Positions 2,813-20,000 of a DNA stretch of 20,000 nucleotides are shown in pieces. The notes beneath the pieces are model-generated. The model saw nothing but the letters and a program-made list of their open reading frames with translations. It was not told the origin of the DNA and made no database searches. The DNA lies in assembly GCA_026026165.1 (NCBI GenBank), contig JAPEUD010000049.1:174309-194308 (forward strand). Reading direction: 5' to 3'. Numbering within the stretch: the stretch's first letter is position 1; each line of letters starts with the position of its first letter. The stretch is from Sarea resinae (lineage: Eukaryota). A program made the position numbers and the translations under genes.

Positions 2813-3828
2813 GCGCACACTCATTGGGTAATCTGAAGAGAACCCCTGTATATTGCGATGCGGTCTTTATTTTAAGCAATTTTCAAAATAAGAAGGATCT
2901 CTCGGTCAGCCTTCTATCAATACCAGATCGTAGACGTGGTAGCAACAATCAGCTTCATGTCAGTCAATTGGTTGACATCAACGGCAGTGTGCTTGTCTCA
3001 ATGCCATCACGCCGAGAAGGACAAGCCGTCTGTCACGCATCCGGGAATACCTCGATGCCTGTGCCTGTTGAAGCCATAAATCCATATCTTCTAACGCACG
3101 ATGTATAGTCGATATCGTGTATGTTGTTGATGGAGTCATTTACTTAGTCTATCAGAGCTCGCCCCATAATCCGCTATAAAGAGTCCCCATCCCGCCAACG
3201 GGCTCAGCATTGTTCTCCAGGCGATAAGGCAGGTTCCTACCTCAGCCGGTAAATAAGGCACAGCAGAGCATGACTGAGGTGGTTGCCCGCTATCGTAGCG
3301 CGGAAATGGAGACATCATCTATCATGTCCAGCGATGGCTTAGTACCTACCTACCTTTGCCTTACTCTGTTGTGTCGTATCTGATAATTGAACCCATTAAT
3401 TCCAAAGTACCGTTTTGATCCATCATTGTTCTGGACAACGTCAATTGAAGTGGAGAGTACTAAACTTGAGATTCGAGTCCGTCTCTCTGGTGGACTCACC
3501 GGTGTCTCTATCCTCTTAATTCTTCTCCGCGACAAAGGTTTCTATCTGACAGCCCTTGGCAGGATTGACCCTATTGCGGGACACTCCTCCTATATGGCCC
3601 AAACCTCTGAAAATTTATATCAACGTTGCCCACACCCGCGGGTAGGTAGGTAAGGTAAATACCTACAGTGCTCTCTTTAATGATCCTATACCTACCTCCC
3701 CGTCAGTAGAAGACTACCTACCTTCTTACTCAGTGTATTTCTGAGCTTGAGAGGTTACTACTCGGAGTACGGGTAGTGCAAAGTAGGGGTACATAGTACT
3801 CCGTACATAGGTGGATGAGGATCTCCAG

Positions 3829-3963
3829 TTACCTCAGCATGCTCAGACCACATCACGTGGATCCGGATTAACATCCGGCCCGTTCGCGGGCATTCTATAC
3901 CCGCAACTGTACTCTGCGAAGATGTGGTCTGAGGCAGATTTCCTGACGTTGGCGGTGCCACGC
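3829..3963. repeat. Left terminal structure of the DNA transposon (outer TIR, branched foldback, inner IR)
   Basis: The 13-bp stem CTCAGACCACATC (3842-3854) / GATGTGGTCTGAG (3921-3933) encloses hairpins CCGGAT-taac-ATCCGG (3863-3878) and GTT(c)GCGGG...CCCGCAAC (3882-3907). Confidence 0.85.
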
Positions 3964-4673
3964 GGGAGTTTTCATTAATTTTCACAGTGTAAGGAAAAGG
4001 TCAACGTGAATAACTCACTGAATATAGCTCTATATAGCTTTAGAATCTAATCACTTATGAAAAATATATAAGAGTACAACCTATACTAGTTTGTTTGATT
4101 TCCTAGGACCTAGTTTAAGATATCTTATGCTTTAAAGTGAAATCTAAAAATAGCATATTTTGCCCTTTAAGCGCCTTCTTGACACTGACTTTTGTTAAGC
4201 TACTACAATTTTACTAGTAGTTAAGGTACGTACCTTTTCAGGCCCTTATCTTTAAACTCTGCTCCTATATACATACTAATTTAGATTTATTGTGAGGACT
4301 GCAAACAGGCAAATCAGTACCCAGCTGAGTCAAAAAGACTACTATAACTAGCCCCTAGGCTAGTTATACCTATTTACCTACTATATAGCAGCAGTTGTCA
4401 CCTAACGTAGGGAACTGCACTGTCGGCACGTTCCGCGGCACTTACTACCAGTACGTAGCTACGTACTCTGGTGGCCCCCTCAGGTACGTTGCGCAAGTAC
4501 CTCTGTACCTCAAGTACCTCTGTACCTGCGCTCCTGACATTTATCTAGAAATCTAATCACTTATAGAGAAGAAGTAGAGCTTTAATATTAGCTAAAATCA
4601 TTTATATAAAGTGTTGTAGTTAAAGAGATCTTATGCTTTAAAGTCAAAAATTATTGCTTCTAACACATATTCT

Positions 4674-4793
4674 GCGTGGCACTCACAAAGTCAGGCAAAA
4701 GTGCCTCAGACCTCTGGCTGGTCAATTGCCTAATTAGGCAATAGTGGTCCGTGCGGACCACCGACCAAGCGAGGTCTGAGCATGCTGAGGTAA
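4674..4793. repeat. Right terminal structure of the DNA transposon (inner IR, branched foldback, outer TIR)
   Basis: The 10-bp stem CTCAGACCTC (4705-4714) / GAGGTCTGAG (4771-4780), extended by GCTGGTC/GACCAAGC, encloses the palindrome ATTGCCTAATTAGGCAAT (4725-4742) and hairpin GTGGTCCG-tg-CGGACCAC (4744-4761). Confidence 0.88.
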
Positions 4794-5507
4794 GATCTCC
4801 AGTGGGATCGCATCCGTGATTCGTCATGCATCCGCAGTGCGGCCGAGGGCGCTTTCTCGCATGCCCAGACCCTGTCAACCCTGGCTTGGCTGCTCAAACG
4901 CTCATACGACAGGAGTACTTTAGTGCAGCCTGTGCTAGGAGTAATAGTACGGAGTACTCCAGCTGTGCAGCACTCTACTCCGTATGCACTGGATTAGTCG
5001 CATTTCATTACTATTTATTACTTTCTCACCTACGGCAATTGTGCGCTACTACTTCCCTTTCCGTGCTATTGAAGGACTAGGACTACGCTGCGCTCGCTCA
5101 GCCTACCTGGCTTACCTGGCATATCTCATGCCCAAATTCTCCTCTCCCGTCATTTTCACATTCATTTACAGCTGAGGACAGTCTCTGCGGCCCAAATTTA
5201 ATAAACGTTATTGCCTCGTTCTACTTGTGGTCTGGTCTTACCTAGGTGGATCTGCGCTCGCTCGGACCAAGACGTCAGGCATCACGTTCCGCCAGCTCCC
5301 TCGAAGTTTGCCTGCGAAAGACGTTCTGAAATCAGCCTATTCTGTATACTATCAGACTCGAATACCCACCAGTCGCTTCCGCCTAGGTATATATGAACAT
5401 CAGCATTCTGGCTGGACCATGAATGCTTGATACTTGCGAGAGGAGAGGGTCACGACAAAACGTCCAATCTTATCGTGGCATGGAAGGCAAGGGTGTGTCC
5501 CACTGAA

Positions 5508-10976: not shown

Positions 10977-11084
10977 CTTAAGTGATGTTTTAGATTTATA
11001 GTGGTTTAAGTAATACTATAACAAGACGTTCTATTTAATTAGAAGAATTTAGAAATCATAGTAAATATTAGAGAGTAGTATTAA

Positions 11085-11393
11085 TATAAGGGCCACTACT
11101 AATAAGGGTGCTGTATGCAGCTCGGCGCAGCGCAGGGTAACCACCTGGTGTGGTTCAGCAACGTTTAGGTAAGCTGAGCGAGGTCATTAGTTATATAGAT
11201 CAATAGGGGCGCTAGCTATTAGGGCTAGCGTTCAGTGCAATTACAAAGTCAGTGCCTACTAGCAATATCTATATCTATAGTATTAGTTCTGCATCGCTAG
11301 AGTGACGCTAGCACGCTGCAAGGCACTAGCCTATTTAATTATGCTATTCCTACCTACTCTACTATAGCTAGAAGTCTAAGAGGCAGTCTAACA
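11085..11393 (+). repeat. 5' LTR of the Gypsy element
   Basis: TATAAG (inferred TG before RIP)...TCTAACA. Gap-free match to 18156-18464 with about 17 differences, all transitions. Confidence 0.95.
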
Positions 11394-11396
11394 ATT

Positions 11397-11405
11397 CTAA
11401 ACGCT
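11397..11405 (+). other. Putative self-priming primer-binding site
   Basis: CTAAACGCT starts 4 nt after the 5' LTR. It is the exact reverse complement of AGCGTTTAG in the 3' LTR (18298-18306) and differs by one RIP-type change from AGCGTTCAG in the 5' LTR (11227-11235). Confidence 0.6.
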
Positions 11406-11517
11406 CTACTAACACAGTAGTAGACTAGGTAAGATAGCGACAATAAATACATGTAATACTATAAGGGCTCCTAATACTCTGCTAGGTAAGAGAGCTAATA
11501 GAGACAATAGTAAGACA

Positions 11518-14500
11518 ATAGCAAGCTAGGCAAAAGGCAAGGTTAAGGAGCCTGTCTCTAACTAGATCACTAATTAATTGCTAGACTAAATACAGCAAGA
11601 GTGTGACGCTAAAGAGCGGCAGGCTTAATATCGTTGACTCTAGAGAGAGATAGCCTAGTTCTATACAGAACAGCAACTACAAGCACTTGCATAAGTATTG
11701 CAGCTAGAACAAGGCCTTGCAGCCACCACGCTAGCACCCTGCATCACTAACTAGACTAAAATCCAAGCTCTAGAGCTATTTACAGGCAAGACAATTAAGG
11801 AGCATAATGAATTTGTCTAATCCTATAAGATAGCGTTCTAACTAGGTGCTATTGCAGACAAAAGTGATAATGTAGCAAAGGTGCTATATACTATGCAGTA
11901 CCTAAAAGACAAACTAGCGCTAGCGTGGCACTAGGTTAAAGAATCTACTAGAAAAGACACTTATACCTAGGATAAATTTGTCTTATTCCTGCTAGACTAA
12001 GTAGAAGATCTAGTAAATCAAGGTGGTTTAATATCACAGCTATACTATAACGCTACGCAGGCGCTGCACTAGAGCATTAATAGCTTTACAGCTTTCCTAG
12101 AACAGATTGAACTAGAAGTGCTAGGAGGATAAGACATCCCTAAAGAGCAGCAATACAACTTGTTCTATACTAAGATCTAAAGTGAAATTTACTAGGAACT
12201 GCTCTAAACCCTACTAATACCACGAAAGTAGAGCGCTGCTATAGCGTCAGCAAATTAGGTAGAGGAACTCCTTTGTATAAGCAATAAAAGGAATAAGAAT
12301 AAGAACCCTAATCTATCTAAGCTAGACAATAAGCGACAGCATAGCAATAGCGTAGAGAAGGGAAAGAGTTAGAACAAATAAGGAACTAAACGAAAGTTTA
12401 ATCCTACTAAACGCAAGGGCAAAAGCCTACCTCTATAAGAACAAAAAACTTCTGCTTAGCCTAAGGATAATAAAGGCGATAAGTCTATACAGTGGCCTTA
12501 ACAGCTCTCTAACAAAGAGTATTGCTGCAGGCAAGAAGGCAACCTTTGCCTAAACTGTAGCTAAGAGAGCTACTTTGCTTCTACTTGTAAGAATAAACGC
12601 AACGACAGGCCTACGCTAGCTTTATAACTAGAGCTAAAACCCTACACTATTTGCTATCTTAGTGTAGGAGAACCTTAAGGAGCTCTAACCCTAAAATTAG
12701 AGACGTCGCTAACTATTCGCACCTCTAGTAGTACAGCAGATAGCACTACCTTAATTGACTTAGGAGCAGAAGCTTCTCTAGTTTTGCAATTATAGATTAA
12801 GGAGCATAGGATCCCTAAGGCTAAGCTTAGGCAGCTACCTAGCGCAGTAACAGTGAACAGCTTGCAAGTAGCGATCTACAGCTAACACTAATTAGAAATA
12901 CAAGTCGCTAATAGTAATAGCGTGAGAAAGATAGCGTAGTGCTAGTTCCTTGCCTGCGACTTTAATAGTCCTCTATTCTTACTTAGGTATCTATAGCTGT
13001 CCTTATACCGCCACGATATGCGTTAGTTAGAAGGTAAATTTAGCTACGTTAAGCCTGTAGATAAGCCTAGGCTTAGCAAGGAACATTAGAAGAAACGTCA
13101 GCTAAACTGCTAAGGGATTATAGTAGTGCCTAAACCTATAGAGGCAGTGAAGCTTCGCTAGGTCAGCGCTAGTAACAAGATACCTAAACAGTATAAGGAA
13201 TTTGCTTCTGTCTTTAGCAAAGAGAAAGCTAGCTAGCTTCCTAAGCATAGCCTAGCCGACTATACTATTAAGTTAGAGAGTAAAGACTCTCTCTATAGTC
13301 CTATATATCTATTATCCTAGAAAGAATTAGGTATCCTACAGACCTACCTAGACAACAGCTTAGTAAAGAGGTAGATCACTCTCTCTATAAGCCCTATTAG
13401 TGCGCTAATCTTGTTTGTGCCTAAGAAGGATAGTAGCTTACGACTTTGCGTTGACTACTAGGCGTTAAACAAGGTCACTATTAAGAATCAATACCTATTA
13501 CCCCTTATTTCTAAGCTTATAGACTGAATAAGCAGTGCTAAAGTTTTTTCAAAACTAGACCTAAGAGATGCTTACTACTGCATAAGGATCTGCAAAGGCG
13601 ACAAGTATAAGACAGCGTTCTGCACTTGTTATAGCTAGTTTAAATATAAGGTTATGCTCTTTAGATTAGCTAATGCACCTGCTACATTTTAGAGCTATAT
13701 TAATTATGCGTTACAAGGCCTAGTTAATGTCTACTGCGTTGTCTATCTAGACGACATTCTTATATACTCTAATTCACCTAATAAGCATAAGAAGCATATA
13801 CACTAGGTCCTTAAACAGCTATTAACCTATAGCCTATATGCAAAGCCCTTAAAATGTGTCTTTAGAGTGTAGGAAGTTGATTTCTTAGGATTTGTTATTA
13901 GGACTAATAGTATCGCGATAGAGAAGAGCTAGGTAGACACTATAAAAAAGTGGCTAGCCCTTAAGACCTATTATAACCTCTAAGTCTTCCTAGGATTCGC
14001 GAATTTCTACTAATAGTTTATAGAGAAATACTCTATTAAAGCGCTGCTATTAACTAGCCTGCTTGCTAGGAGCAAGAATAGAAAGAAAAGCAGTCTATTC
14101 TACTTCTCTAAGGAAGCTAAGGAAGCATTTAAAGCCCTAAAAGAAGCTTTTACAACAGCGCCTATACTGCGCTACTACAATCTAAAGAGGCAGATATAAG
14201 TAGAAACAAACGCTTCTAGATTTGCTGTTGCAGCAATTTTATCCTAGCTAGTCAAGGATAAATAGGGCGTGACAACAGCGTTAAGGTAGCACCTAGTTGC
14301 ATACTAGTCTAGAAAGCTTACTAATACTAAATCGAGATATAAAGTGCATGACTTAGAGTTGCTAGCTATTGTAATAGCTTTTAAGCAATAGCGCTATTAC
14401 TTAGAAGAGGCTAATTACCCTATTAAGGTCTTAACTAACTATGCAAATCTACGCTACTTTATAACAACAAAGGAGTTAACCTGTCGCTAGGCTAGATAGG

Positions 14501-16833
14501 CTGAACAGCTAGCAGCGTATGATTTTAAACTTGTATATAGAGCAGAGAAAGCTAATCTAGCTAATAGGCTGTCGCAGCGCCCTAATTACAAGGTAAAGAC
14601 ATAGGGTCTAGAAGTGATACTTCTTACTCTATAGCAGAAGCTGCAGAACCTGCGTATGTTAAAGAGAGACAGCACTGTGCTAGTGATCTAAAACCTTCTT
14701 GCTAGAACAGATAATAAGTATCTAGGCGAAATAGGCGCTAATACACTAAAGGATAATGTGCATCTATAAGGGATTAAAAACCTCTCTAGGTTAAGGGATA
14801 ACACCTTGCCTACTGTTAATAAGCGACAGTAGCGCGCTAGGATAACACCTAGTCTAAGCGTAAAGGATAATGTGTATCTATAAAGGATTAAAACCCTTTC
14901 TAAGTTATAGGATAAAACCTAGCCTAATGTCAAAGAGCGATAGAGAGGCACTAGAGTGACACCTAGGCCTAGCCTAAATAACAATGCTAATAAGCTAGCA
15001 TTAGGAGATAAGTTTAAACACCTCTATATAAGACAAGCAATGCATAAGGCAGCTGCTAATAAAAGAGCGTACAACCTGCTAACAGGCTAGCTGCTTAACG
15101 TTATCCTTAGGACTTAGTAGGAAGATTATTTCGCTAAGGAAAAGATTAAAAGCATTTCTACTAAGGAGGTTACAGGCTAAGAAAAGTGGAAAATAGACTC
15201 TATAGGCCTGCTGCGCCTAGAAGGCAAAGCATATGTGCCGCGTGATGCAGCTATTAGGTTAGAAATCATAAGGATAAACTATAATAACCTGTTTAGTAGC
15301 TACTTTAGCGCTAAGAGAACGATAGAGGTGATCTAGTGTAAATACTAGTAGACTAATTTAGCTAAGGATGTCAAAGAATATATTAATAAGTGCGATATAT
15401 GTTAAAGGGTCTAGGTGCCTAGGCATCGCCTATACAGCGAGCTACAGTCGTTACCTATACCCTACTAGCTGTTTAAAGAAATCACTATAGATTTTGTGAC
15501 AGGCCTGCTGCTAAGCAACACAAGAGATTGCAAGGCCTATAACATAATAATAGTAGTAGTTGACTGCTATACAAAGATAGCGAAATATATTCTATGCTGA
15601 ACAAATCTGAATGCCGCTATACTTGCAGACATATTTGTTAACGTTATAACAACAGCGTATAGCAATCTAAAGCGCATTGTATTAGATAGGGGCAGTGTAT
15701 TTGCAAGCAAGTTTTAGTCAGCGATATGCTATTGAATGCGAATTAAGAACTAGCTTAGCACTGCCTTCTACCTGCAGACAGATAGCTAGACTAAGAGGCA
15801 AAACTAGACGTTAGAACACTACTTACAGTGCTATATAAGCAGCTGCTAGGACGACTAGGCCCTGCTGTTGCCTATAGCTAAGTATGCATACAATAATAGC
15901 ATACATTTGTCTATAGGAATGTCACTCTTCTATGCCCTATATAGCTATAACCTAGATCTGCAACTTAATATCACAGACAATGCTATAGAGAGAGAGGTGC
16001 TAGCAGCGAACAAGCGCCTTAACGTCCTCTAAGAGGTAAGACAAAGACTAGAAGAGGATCTTGCTAAGGCATAGCAGTACTAAGCTAAGTAGTACAATAG
16101 GAAACATAAGCTAATGCAATACAAAAGAGGCGATAGAGTTATGCTGTCAGCGCGCAACCTTAGCACTATACACCTGAGTAAGAAGTTAGAGCACTGCTAT
16201 ATAGGCCTATTTGTAGTACTTAACTCTATAGGCAAGCAAGCCTACTAGTTACAGCTCTCTAAGGCTTATAGATCTATCTACCTTGTATTTTATGTGTCGC
16301 TACTTAAGCGCTACTACAGCAATAGCAATACCTTTCACTAGCACTTTAAGCTAGTTAATAGCTAGGTTAAGTAGATTGTTAAGAAAATCCTAGGCTGTAG
16401 AGTACTTAAGAGAGAACAACAATATCTAGTTAAGTAGAAAAGAGCTCTAGTAGATAATACTAGCTAGGAGCTAGCAGAGCACCTAGCAAACGCTATAGAC
16501 CTAGTATAGGATTATAAACAGCACTTACTCTCTAACTAGTATAGAGGCCTAGCAAACAAGGAATAGGATGCTAGTGTGCTATTAACTAAGCCTTATAGTC
16601 GACTAAGGAAGCGACTGCTTAGTGATAACGCTGTAGAGGCGATAGCTAAGAGGCTAAGAGGCTACCTAAGGAAGAATCTACTACTCTATAAGGAACCCCT
16701 AGCTAGCCTAGAGATGCTAGTAACAAAACGCCTACAAGGAAGGCTATAGAAGTATAGCCTAAAGCTGCAAGTGATTGTAGGAAGGAGACCTTACAGCTGT
16801 CCTAGAAAGGACACGCTGTTGCAGCACTAGTAA
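11518..16833 (+). pseudogene. RIP-destroyed single-frame gag-pol polyprotein
   Basis: Every motif checked is in frame +1, with many TAA/TAG stops. Residues in brackets are inferred pre-RIP. Zn knuckle CLNC...(H)FASTC 12547-12588; protease LID(S)GA 12751; RT FVPKKD(GG)LRLCVDY(R)ALN about 13410-13470 and VYLDDIL 13741; RNase H VET(D)AS 14200; integrase (S)DRG about 15680 and STAF(HP)QTD(GQ)T(E)RQN about 15760; G(P)F about 16200; chromodomain 16369-16500. Both ends are approximate. Confidence 0.93.
14747..14974 (+). repeat. Two tandem 114-bp (38-codon) units in the RNase H-integrase linker
   Basis: TAAAGGATAATGTG(C/T)ATCTATAA(G/A)GGATTAAAA(A/C)CCT... starts at both 14747 and 14861. Confidence 0.85.
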
Positions 16834-17105
16834 GGAGCTGCTATTAGAACTCTTTCTACCCCTTTTACCTACAAAGGTTTTTAGGTGGTTTTAGCAAGCT
16901 AATATAGGGGTAGGCCTGCGATGCGATTGCATGCTAACAGCGTACAGTCTTTATAGAAGGCTATTAGGCTATAGGGCTACAATGCTACAGTTATAAGAGG
17001 AGATAAAGTCATAGAAAAGAAAAGTAAAATTAACCTCTAGCGCTGTCCTAGCGCGAACCTAAAGCTATCTAGTATACAAAGGAAACAGAAAGAACTACTA
17101 TCCTA

Positions 17106-17803
17106 TTACTAACTAGTCTGCCCTGCCTAGCCCTAACTAGCCTAATTGCTAGACCTCTCTAGAGGCGTAGTTGTATTGTTGTTATCCTTATTATCACTCT
17201 TACCTACATGTGTAACAGACAGCAAATCGAACTAGATAACTAGGTTAGCGCTGTTATATCGCTAGCGTTCTACATACAACTTACAGCAAACTAGAGGATA
17301 TTATTAAGGCTTTTAACGCTATTAGTGAGTTGTTCTGTCGCTACAGCTGTACAAAGCGCGTTGTTAGACAAGTGCTTGTTAGCAGCGTTTATATAGACTT
17401 TAACCTAGCGAGTGAATCGCCTCTATAGATTGCAGAGCGCAGCAGCTAACAGCTTCTTAGCAGGGTTATTATTAGCGTAGCTAACCACTACGTTAGCCGC
17501 CTTAGTAAGCTAGTTTAGGCGCTTGCAGAAGACTATAGGCACCTTTAGCACGCTAGGTCAGAGCCTAGCTAGCACTATATAGGAGTCACTTACCTAACTA
17601 CACTTCTTATACAACTAAGCACATTATATGCACTTTGCAGCTAATAAGGCCTTTGTACAAACAATATCTAGTGTAGACCTAATAACCTTAGCGCAGCAGA
17701 GGCAGACGTCCTAATTCAGTTCTATAGGCTTTTAGAGGGCGGTAGCAGGCTAGTTTACATGTAGCAGAGGCGCAGCAAAGCGTCTAGGATTTATAATAGG
17801 CAT
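17106..17803 (-). pseudogene. RIP-mutated antisense 3-exon accessory gene of the Gypsy element (exons 17803-17594, 17542-17285, 17231-about 17106; about 197 aa) with a Zn2Cys6-like Cys cluster
   Basis: ATG at 17803 and the pattern C-x2-C-x11-C-x8-C-x2-C-x6-C. Two phase-0 introns: GTAAGT...CTGAC...AAG (17593-17543) and GTAAGT...CTAAC...TAG (17284-17232). All internal stops are TAG/TAA that RIP can explain. The true stop is uncertain. Confidence 0.78.
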
Positions 17804-18140
17804 ATAGAACGTACCTAAAACATAGTGCAAAAAGTTTAATTATACACGCGCGCACTAGATCACCTACGTTTTATACCTACACACCTATAGCTAAGCAACC
17901 TCTAAGCGATAGAGAGAATGCCTAATGCAGACAGTTTAAAGCATTCACTCTATCTATTTACTGCTGCTACTCTAGCGCAGCGTTTAGCAAACTAAGCAAA
18001 TAGGACAAAGAACTCTCTTTATTATCTACATAAATTCACTGTTTGCAGCGAATAGCAACGCTACTAAGGCGCTAGCAAGACAAAGACTTAACACTATAAT
18101 GTTATACATCGCGAACAAAGGACCTAGAGGACTAGGTCCT

Positions 18141-18155
18141 AGGAGAGGAGGTAAT
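18141..18155 (+). other. Polypurine tract
   Basis: AGGAGAGGAGGTAAT immediately 5' of the 3' LTR. Confidence 0.8.
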
Positions 18156-18464
18156 TATAAGGGCTACTACTAATAAGGGTGCTGTATGCAGCTTAGCGCA
18201 GCGCAGGGTAACTACCTAGTGTGGTTTAGCAACGTTTAGGTAAGCTAAGCAAGGTTATTAGTTATATAGATTAATAGGGGCGCTAGCTATTAGGGCTAGC
18301 GTTTAGTGCAATTACAAAGTTAGTGCCTACTAGCAATATCTATATCTATAGTATTAGTTCTGCATTGCTAGAGTGACACTAGCACGCTGCAAGGCACTAG
18401 CCTATTTAATCATGCTATTCCTACCTACTCTACTATAGCTAGAAGTCTAGGAGGCGGTCTAACA
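18156..18464 (+). repeat. 3' LTR of the Gypsy element
   Basis: Direct repeat of 11085-11393 at offset 7071; ends TCTAACA followed by TTAA. Confidence 0.95.
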
Positions 18465-18850
18465 TTAAGTAGGTAGTCTCTTAATTATTACTAGGTACTA
18501 GGTACTAGTACTAGACAAGTGATATACTATAAATATACAGTTAAACCTACTTATAATAGTAGAGGTTTAAGAATCTAGAAAAGGTTTAACACTATTATAA
18601 GACCTAAAAAGGTTTAATATAGTCTTAACACTTAGAGTAGGTTTTAGAGACCTATAGAAGGTCTTAAAACTCTTAATACTATTATAATATAGTCTTAAAC
18701 TAGTTATAAAAACCTCTTTAAAGGCACTTAAGTACCTTAGTACTATATTAAGTAATTTTAAAACTGTGTTTAAACTGTGTTAAAACTATATTATTACTAC
18801 TATAAGTGTTAACACCTATAGAAATTATAAGACAGTACTATAACAGTGTT
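18465..18850. repeat. Unclassified, heavily RIP-degenerate AT-rich repeat relic
   Basis: Very AT- and TpA-rich, with short reiterated motifs (AAAAGGTTTAA, AATATAGTCTTAA, AAACTGTGTT). No recognisable protein motif. Confidence 0.5.
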
Positions 18851-19027
18851 TGTTATAAGGTAGTATAAATATATAAGTAAAGAAAGGTGCTAAAGAAGTA
18901 TAGTATAGAATAATTATATATTATAAACTTAGAGATTCTAGCTATAGAGGTAGAAGGCAGTTAATATATAGACTTAACTAACTTAATAGAAAATTCTAGC
19001 AATAACTAATTGTATAAGTGATTTGTA
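18851..19027 (-). mobile_element. 3' part of a Copia-type LTR in minus orientation (solo or 3' LTR, apparently interrupted)
   Basis: Reverse complement aligns with 19351-19528 over about 177 bp with one indel. It ends in ...ATAACA at 18851 and is not followed by a PBS. Confidence 0.75.
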
Positions 19028-19081
19028 TTAGAATTATAACCTTAATTCTAGTCACTCTTAAGTATCTAGACTATTATAGAA

Positions 19082-20000
19082 TGTTATATAATTGTATAGA
19101 TATATCTAGAAGCTTCTATAGACCTATAGAAGCTAATAGAATATAGTAGAACCTTATAGAATCTTATAAAACTTTCTAGAAGATTCTATAGCTATGCTGA
19201 CTAAGCATCACTATATGCTGACTAAGTATCTAAAACCTTTTAGATTACTCTAGAATGTTCTAGAACTACCTAGTAGTCTATAGAATCTCTTAGATATCTA
19301 TAGAATCTCTATAATATAAGAGTTATATAGTAACTATCCTCTAACTTTCTTACAAATCACTTATGTAATTAGTTATCACTAGAAGTTTCTAGTAAGTTAG
19401 TTAAGTCTATATATTAACTGCCTTACACCTCTATAGCTAGAATCTCTAAGTTTATAATATACAATTATTCTATACTATACTTCTTTAGGCACCTTCCTCT
19501 ACTTATATCTTTATACTACCTTTAAACAGGTTATAAGCCTTGCTAGCCTGCTAAAGAAGCCTATAATTTCGTGGTTTTTTCACCTATAGCCACTGAAATT
19601 CCTTTAAAGAAGAGTTAAACTTCCTCTTTTTCACCTAAAAAGACTAGGTCCTATAGTCTTTATAGTCCCTAGGCAGTTATATAGCCTCTTAGAGGTTATA
19701 TAACTTAACTTGCAGATAAGAACCACTTAGAGTAGACTGCTTAAACTAAGCCTATACTTATAGACATTGTGTATACACACACTTAATAAGGATTTTCCTA
19801 ATCCTTTGTGCTGCCTTATAGGCATAATCCCCTTTGAAGGGAAACACCTATAGGAGAGCAAGTTAAGTGCTTAATGTATGCTGCCTTTACCTAGTCCTAT
19901 AGTACCTATAGCTTGTGTCTATAGAACTATAGTATAGCAGCCTGTGTTCTGCACACCTTAGCAGCTTGTGTTCTGCAAAGCAGCCTTTGTGCCGCAATTT
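19082..20000 (+). mobile_element. 5' end of a RIP-mutated Ty1/Copia-type retrotransposon: LTR about 19082-19528, PBS 19529-19540, internal leader running off the window
   Basis: TGTTA...AAACA boundaries followed directly by GGTTATAAGCCT, the RIP form of GGTTATGAGCC seen after Copia 5' LTRs. The LTR has reiterated TAGAA/TTCTA motifs and two ATGCTGACTAAG copies. No coding motif is recognised in the window, and the LTR start is less certain than its end. Confidence 0.7.

Follow-up and report, generated by a model that had tools for sequence, protein, structure and literature searches.

A transposon insert of 965 bp, whose two ends carry palindromic modules, occupies positions 3829-4793 of a 20,000-nucleotide stretch of the Sarea resinae genome (contig JAPEUD010000049.1 of assembly GCA_026026165.1, positions 174,309 to 194,308; this whole stretch is called the window below). 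The insert is a non-coding deletion derivative of an ascomycete family of cut-and-paste DNA transposons. In this family, the sequence of the end module has been replaced between subfamilies, and even between the two ends of one element, while the pairing within each module has been kept. Taken as a whole, we favour with moderate confidence an account in which the insert is a non-autonomous derivative that fits the AcademH lineage best, with tripartite ends that hold a pairing-conserved module and would be recognised through shape together with short core sites. The features on which this account is built are as follows.

3820-3828, no strand: left target-site duplication (TSD), GATCTCCAG, by direct reading of the sequence
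3829-3849, plus strand: left 21-bp terminal inverted repeat (TIR), TTACCTCAGCATGCTCAGACC, ending in the 8 nt CTCAGACC that serve as 5' arm of the hairpin stem
3842-3933, plus strand: left hairpin module, with a 13-bp closing stem (3842-3854 with 3921-3933) and hairpins at 3863-3878 and 3882-3907
3926-3964, plus strand: left arm of the inner inverted repeat, starting right behind the closing motif, 32/39 identical to the right arm
4674-4712, minus strand: right arm of the inner inverted repeat, 32/39 identical to the left arm
4705-4780, minus strand: right hairpin module, with a 10-bp stem (4705-4714 with 4771-4780) and hairpins at 4725-4742 and 4744-4761
4773-4793, minus strand: right 21-bp TIR, pairing with the left TIR at 21 of 21 positions
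4794-4802, no strand: right TSD, the second copy of GATCTCCAG, by direct reading of the sequence

An earlier reading of the window from its letters alone, referred to here as the original prediction, had proposed a 965-bp element with a 9-bp TSD and perfect 21-bp TIRs, and these boundaries were borne out by the coordinates, by the 21/21 complementarity of the termini and by comparison with shuffled sequence. When up to three mismatches are allowed, the TIR is found at only two places in the 20-kb window, which are the insert ends (0 expected from 200 shuffles). The motif CTCAGACC, which had been described as occurring twice per end in inverted orientation, does so; the window holds four occurrences in all, every one at the insert ends, against 0.47 expected, and four were reached in 0/200 shuffles. 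The direct repeat around the insert is formally 10 nt long (GATCTCCAGT). The TSD is nevertheless taken as 9 bp, with the T at 3829 counted as part of the element, because the base ahead of TTACC varies in 24 related loci, in all of which (24/24) the conserved sequence begins at TTACC behind this variable base. The termini of the insert read 5'-TT...AA-3'. Inside each 21-bp terminus lies a perfect 8-bp palindrome, AGCATGCT (3836-3843 and 4779-4786), flanked by two direct CTCAG pentamers; a third such pentamer, in the inverted form CTGAG, is contributed by the closing motif of the end module.

The predicted single-stranded DNA folds of the two ends have z-scores of -6.4 (left) and -6.6 (right), equalled by 0/200 shuffles each, and reproduce the stems and the two hairpins per end that had been claimed, including a second stem in the right module of 7 bp with one bulge (4717-4723 with 4763-4770). 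Both folds are stable on either strand and leave 13 unpaired nt at the terminus, outside the stem. With the motifs held fixed and the interior alone shuffled, z-scores of -4.9 for the left module and -6.1 for the right were obtained. The segments enclosed by the two stems are unrelated by local alignment in both orientations (z = -0.6 and -0.8), after which similarity between the ends resumes in the inner inverted repeat, and here too the initial description was accurate. Its figure of 56-66 nt for the enclosed segments holds as the distance between the extended stem arms (66 and 56 nt), another way of counting; if the count runs instead from behind the 8-nt motif up to its inverted copy, 76 nt are enclosed at the left end and 60 nt at the right.

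The exact 21-nt TIR has been detected in 24 metagenome contigs with differing outer flanks; the prokaryote genomes and viral contigs searched do not contain it. Together with the repetition of the insert ends in sequencing run X1, described below, these contigs supply the further copies at different sites for which the original prediction had called, and the family is mobile, its many copies occupying distinct sites. Read inward from the terminus, the ends form no fewer than eight groups by sequence, and the outer flanks vary within a group (subfamilies are designated by letters and single loci by L numbers). A set of 30 ends was examined, comprising the ends of the 24 exact-TIR contigs, four diverged termini from those loci and the two ends of the window insert. 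In 24 of the 30, the inverted motif GGTCTGAG occurs 32-115 nt inside the terminus, compared with 6.1% of shuffles and 0/18 segments taken 400-570 nt inward; it was also present in 4/16 outward flanks, all of them TIRs or end fragments of adjacent related elements.

The ends of subfamilies A and B overlap in opposite orientation with 97-98.8% identity over up to 1379 bp, from which it follows that A and B represent opposite ends of a single element ~2.35-2.47 kb long. This element has the layout of the window insert, with unrelated modules and an inverted repeat that resumes behind the closing motif; no A-end flank was seen to be the reverse complement of a B-end flank when the end listing was read by eye. 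Among modules that are otherwise unrelated, the heptamer TGATTGG is common to A, D, L012 and L017, and GCTAAGC to B, E and F. Where the interior of a module is asymmetric, it has one orientation in all copies of A (4), B (6), D (4) and G (2).

Some of the related loci have a more complicated structure. A diverged terminus of the TAGTCTCAG...CTCAGACC type is found tail-to-head 15-19 bp outside an exact TIR in two unrelated contigs (L003, at 1965-1985, and L021, 39 nt outside the TIR), and L014 has three termini within 1 kb. Such clusters may reflect an insertion preference beside relatives, or just nests of transposable elements. In L011, the left terminus and module (184-284) carry many C-to-T and G-to-A changes (TTACCTTAGCATACTTAGACC) and an AT-rich interior, as expected from repeat-induced point mutation (RIP), and the left stem still pairs because these changes are symmetric.

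Pairing within the modules extends well beyond the shared motifs. The arms that continue past CTCAGACC and precede GGTCTGAG pair within their own end, with a mean anchored score of 6.9 and a minimum of 3.0, and do not pair with those of different subfamilies (mean 0.76, maximum 4.5, n = 86). Covariation was assessed on a 17-row alignment anchored on both sides, with a stem of 16 pairs, against 500 shuffles and against partners displaced along the alignment.

Cells paired: 86% observed; 71.9 +/- 1.9% in shuffles (0/500 reaching the observed value); 28-47% with the partner slid by 1-3 columns
Double-sided changes: 48 observed; 18.2 +/- 3.6 in shuffles (0/500); 14-26 with the partner slid
Covariation score: 0.373 observed; 0.133 in shuffles (0/500); 0.10-0.19 with the partner slid

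The claim that the fold is conserved is therefore upheld in the form of a closing stem held by compensatory changes while its sequence is replaced. Positions +1, +2 and +3 past the motif are paired in 14/17, 14/16 and 16/17 rows, with four or five pair types in use at +1 and +3 and three at +2. Within the 8-nt core, 6/8 pairs never vary, and one end carries a compensatory change inside the motif itself (CTCAGGCC with GGCCTGAG). With the cores fixed and the interior shuffled, module stability reaches z-scores between -2.4 and -6.6 in eleven ends; in the chimeric L003 it is absent (z = +0.7).

The coding capacity of the family resides in its longer members. Pfam DEAD matches were obtained for 12 of the 34 open reading frames (ORFs) scanned, in seven loci of subfamilies A, B and G and just inside their ends, while helicase fragments were recognised by BLAST in subfamily D. 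L019 has an open frame of 395 codons that begins at a distance of 836 nt from the end; a full-length homologue, P0001, has 707 aa, is 98% identical and contains both DEAD and Helicase_C. A total of 78 homologues of 700-1100 aa were collected, 71 of them with E <= 2e-46, and those that are named all come from Ascomycota; the helicase profile had no match in viral contigs. The nearest solved structures are those of WRN, RecQ and RECQ5. An alignment of 20 proteins shows no variation in the Walker A, DEAH, SAT and arginine-finger motifs or in a cysteine cluster. The DEAD domain starts at residue 68-109 in six of seven scanned proteins and at 207 in the seventh, and only DEAD, Helicase_C and weak related matches were returned. 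Judging from these sequences, the larger family members encode a stand-alone, intact RecQ-like superfamily 2 (SF2) helicase. Between subfamilies A/B, D and G, the helicase is 38-56% identical in protein, beside the same TIR. The suggestion that the insert is a non-autonomous member with a helicase-encoding partner is in line with these longer relatives. Their ORFs, which had been proposed as the means of classification, gave the helicase and no MULE (Mutator-like element) domain, and no transposase within the searched distance of up to 2 kb inward. For the interior ORFs of subfamily C, neither a Pfam family nor longer homologues were found; no PDB relative fell below E = 0.45, and the Atlas score stayed <0.9.

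The family probably belongs to AcademH, a lineage of the Academ superfamily (Kojima 2020, Mobile DNA 11:15), which is the best fit given a 9-bp TSD combined with a helicase. According to papers that cite the description of AcademH, its elements have TSDs of 9 or 10 bp and encode a helicase (PMC10045372), in agreement with the link between AcademH and 9-bp TSDs that the original prediction had drawn. Helicases with DEAD and Helicase_C have been attributed to AcademH or KolobokH, the former having a low copy number in Ascomycota (PMC10799480), and non-autonomous Academ elements have been reported in a fungus (PMC8290104). The present family resembles AcademH in its TIRs, in the perfect 9-bp GATCTCCAG, found at the window copy alone, and in the DEAD plus Helicase_C helicase of the exact-TIR relatives, which is absent from the window's insert. 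An Academ-type DDE transposase would be expected of an AcademH family; none was seen in the present loci, within up to 2 kb inward of the ends. KolobokH is likewise a fungal lineage of DNA transposons with a RecQ helicase, within Kolobok elements characterised by a TTAA TSD and 5'-RR...YY-3' termini, the helicase lying downstream of the transposase domain (PMC9587614). It was rejected on the 9-bp TSD, the TT...AA termini, the stand-alone helicase and the absence of TTAA beside any of the 24 loci or the window copy.

Likeness to other systems is architectural. As in integron attC sites, inverse core sites close an imperfect palindrome whose centre is free in length and sequence; by analogy, the conserved inverse cores, the free-sequence palindrome and the compensatory change of the present ends give them an attC-like architecture. 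The attC sites conserve structure, not sequence. They occur in bacteria, do not form the ends of transposons and are substrates of a tyrosine recombinase in the form of a folded single strand; no homology is implied. As an analogue, attC appears closer to the present ends than the inverted terminal repeats of parvoviruses such as adeno-associated virus (AAV), to which the original prediction had compared them. The window ends, B and C share with AAV a predicted three-way junction with two small hairpins in a stem, and a system that includes a helicase. The comparison was weakened by the 13 nt outside the stem, by the TSD and TIR in chromosomal DNA and by a RecQ-like SF2 enzyme in place of the HUH-SF3 Rep; a parvovirus-like rolling-hairpin origin was rejected, the hairpin not being terminal and no flip-flop occurring among the copies of A, B, D and G. 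Helitrons and IS200/IS605 elements have subterminal hairpins, recognised on a single strand of DNA, and the former also encode a helicase. Both groups differ in having no TIR, no TSD and HUH nucleases, with a Pif1-type helicase in Helitrons, none of which was seen here; a Helitron was rejected in view of the TIR, the TSD and the RecQ-like helicase. A string of 18 nt from the TIR had no match in searchable papers, and no description of a palindromic module within the TIR of a helicase-encoding transposon was found in the literature searched, to which supplements and the primary AcademH paper did not belong.

The architecture suggests how the ends might work. Each end is tripartite, consisting of the strongly conserved 21-bp terminus as presumed transposase cleavage and binding site, a palindromic module of 32-115 nt and a resumed inverted repeat of ~40 bp, with the module stem opening in CTCAGACC, the last 8 nt of the terminus, and closing on the inverted GGTCTGAG. 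On unwinding of the end, the module could be extruded as a hairpin or cruciform, assuming that it folds in vivo. RecQ enzymes bind and unwind branched DNA. Because of this activity, the RecQ-like helicase encoded by the family is the prime candidate for the unwinding, and it might either make or resolve the structure at the ends. Extrusion would place the outer 13 nt beside the inner repeat, presenting a junction-shaped substrate to the transposition machinery, and recognition would then depend on shape plus short core sites, in analogy to integron attC. A stricter version, in which only a folded end with its outer 13 nt abutting the inner repeat is cut and joined, the helicase unwinds the terminus and recognition depends on a single strand, is put forward tentatively and appears unlikely.

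Several observations weigh against this account. The ends were collected by exact TIR match, so that the conservation of the TIR is partly a matter of ascertainment. The closing motif is missing in 6/30 ends, of which L024 is cut by the end of its contig and five are deleted, rearranged or diverged. Module stability is weak in four ends, namely two of D (z = -1.1 and -0.2), L006 (-1.7) and L015 (-1.9). The T shape described in the original prediction, with two inner hairpins in a three-way junction, is predicted at both window ends, in B and C and in the single copies L022 and L015, and is not general: A (L001, L007), E and G (L019) form one long imperfect hairpin, and the D copies have two or three small predicted hairpins without stability above shuffles. 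The conserved feature is accordingly the closing stem with a structured interior, rather than the T as such. Covariation in a palindrome can also come from copying of one arm onto the other or from symmetric RIP, the left end of L011 being RIP-like. By Pfam, DEAD was the sole match in the related loci, searched up to 2 kb inward of the ends, and no transposase of any kind was found. Copies with their own 9-bp TSDs, which had been looked for as support, were not encountered: among the related loci, none has two ends flanked by a TSD, and the 9-bp TSD rests on the window copy. Two loci with a pair of TIRs, L011 (184-1303) and L014 (153-783), have no flanking direct repeat; each pair probably combines the termini of different elements or of rearranged, RIP-affected ones. 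Finally, an empty site with a single GATCTCCAG was sought in the contigs of run X1 and none was found, no contig joining across the insert.

Four alternative explanations have been considered, of which recognition of the ends as duplex DNA is the serious rival. Under this explanation, each end has two binding sites for the transposase or a host factor, CTCAGACC and its inverted copy, which a dimer would bridge over the spacer between them; the palindromy would be left over from the origin of the ends, and neither hairpin nor cruciform would form. DDE transposons commonly have subterminal sites in both orientations, and the near invariance of the 8-nt core, the wide variation in spacer length (32-115 nt), the D and L006 modules that fold no better than shuffles and the TIR palindrome, which suggests dimer binding, would all be accommodated. 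Complementarity that extends past the core, in sequences specific to each subfamily, is not needed by duplex sites, and the inner hairpins at both window ends are perfect palindromes of 16-18 nt; we regard duplex recognition as possible, if improbable. That the modules are non-functional by-products of hairpin-templated repair, gene conversion within a palindrome or symmetric RIP would agree with the left window module, which has single-copy depth and yet a perfect 13-bp stem, as for a recent palindrome, and with the matching C-to-T and G-to-A changes on both arms of the L011 left end. A by-product origin is less easily reconciled with modules that start at nt 14 of the terminus in 24/30 ends, across helicase lineages 38-45% identical, with the single orientation that asymmetric interiors hold within subfamilies, or with the recurrence of TGATTGG and GCTAAGC across unrelated modules, and is considered quite improbable.

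The two remaining explanations place the insert or its hairpins elsewhere. MULEs have TSDs of 8-11 bp (PMC6446971), a range into which the present 9 bp falls, and miniature inverted-repeat transposable elements (MITEs) derived from them resemble the insert in having a 9-bp TSD and a TIR, in being non-coding and in measuring <1 kb. The insert could then be a MULE MITE, with the helicase of its relatives representing captured host DNA as in Pack-MULEs, and no transposase that would exclude this was seen in the related loci. Against such a capture, relatives with the identical TIR carry the helicase in at least three diverged subfamilies (A/B, D and G) at 38-56% identity, all catalytic motifs are kept throughout the helicase family, and the 34 scanned ORFs, which come from related loci none of which is full-length, contain no MULE domain; a MULE origin is very unlikely. 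A role at the RNA level, in which read-through transcripts would supply the hairpins as precursors of small RNAs with a silencing or regulatory effect on the family, has in its favour that the folds are stable on both strands and that MITE hairpins are known sources of small RNAs. The fixed position of the module and a stem built from the terminal repeat point instead to transposition, and no Rfam match was obtained at gathering score, leaving the RNA explanation the most far-fetched of the four.

The interior of the insert is non-coding. No ORF of more than 80 codons overlaps it, none of its ORFs has a family match, and no helicase remnants were detected in the window by tblastn with the 78 helicase proteins. 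The interior features are the following.

4111-4142, plus strand: internal direct repeat, copy 1, 283-314 nt from the left end
4617-4648, plus strand: internal direct repeat, copy 2, 91% identical to copy 1
4291-4539, no strand: nested MITE-like repeat of 249 bp with imperfect inverted ends TGTGAGGACTGCA / TGCGCTCCTGACA

The core of the direct repeat, ATCTTATG-N-TTTAAAG, is invariant in all six aligned rows (both window copies and four A loci). In subfamily A the core is found again, immediately ahead of the helicase ORF and ~272-298 nt from the A end, and the stretch common to copy 2 and the A family amounts to 27 nt at 89% identity by BLAST (E 7e-4). Since this motif of ~25 nt is shared with group A, the window insert is related to the coding elements beyond its terminus. 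The core may be a promoter or TATA region, or a subterminal binding site. A wider internal duplication (4040-4145 / 4546-4650) spans 506 bp from start to start, or ~252 bp without the nested MITE. The segment at 4291-4539 is recognised as a nested MITE because TTTAT stands on both sides of it (4286-4290 and 4540-4544) and because it has boundaries of its own in run X1, where its depth is 5-20x that of the flank and contigs turn to unlike sequence before 4290 and behind 4539. The Rfam scan also gave one sub-threshold SAM-II match, within the nested MITE.

Run X1 covers 94% of the stretch and is probably its source, hence not independent of it. Of the 95 contigs of this run that lie on the stretch, 58 are <99% identical. 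The flanks and 3903-4237 have a summed depth of ~320, which rises to 10-30x that value on the TIR and the right module, the right hairpin module reaching ~30x flank. Behind 4794, the contigs run into mutually different, unlike sequences. This excess of depth, and the divergence of contigs exactly at 4794, indicate that the insert ends are repeated at other sites of the genome. Variant copies of the right hairpin have an enlarged loop containing GCTAAGC, with the stem retained. The left module (TIR apart) and the adjoining 330 bp (3836-4237) stand at single-copy depth, and the right module is about as repeated as the TIR; the left end of the window copy may be unique or chimeric, depth sums not being copy numbers.

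The neighbouring genes are of fungal type (TFIIB, ATP synthase subunit h and a DUF1765 protein), in an ascomycete-type region, and no tRNA genes were found. A 151-nt contig of run X2, from a different organism and at depth 2, matches the right flank at 4832-4982 with one mismatch, which may point to non-coding conservation or to a further repeat; the nearby flank motif TACGGAGTAC was tried as the mark of another element, and its four occurrences in the window defined none. At 11000-20000, GC content drops from ~0.48-0.50 to 0.36-0.41, reaching 0.26-0.33 near 18000-20000, with a positive AT skew and without long ORFs, and this block may be RIP-affected or repeat-rich.

That some eukaryotic cut-and-paste transposons, such as AcademH and KolobokH, carry a helicase has been tied only speculatively to TSD length, in a paper that cites the AcademH description (PMC10045372). 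The presence of a pairing-conserved module in elements that encode a RecQ-type enzyme offers a concrete, testable helicase substrate. The module also provides a search key, the 21-bp terminus followed by an inverted 8-mer within ~120 nt, with which non-autonomous members can be found; similarity searches miss these because their two ends and their interiors are unrelated. Should the end architecture of AcademH prove to have been described already, the finding would amount to a new, well-documented member. If the proposed recognition is true, the family would represent a eukaryotic TIR transposon with structure-specific recognition of its ends comparable to that of attC or IS200, and would give the helicases of AcademH and KolobokH a first concrete job.

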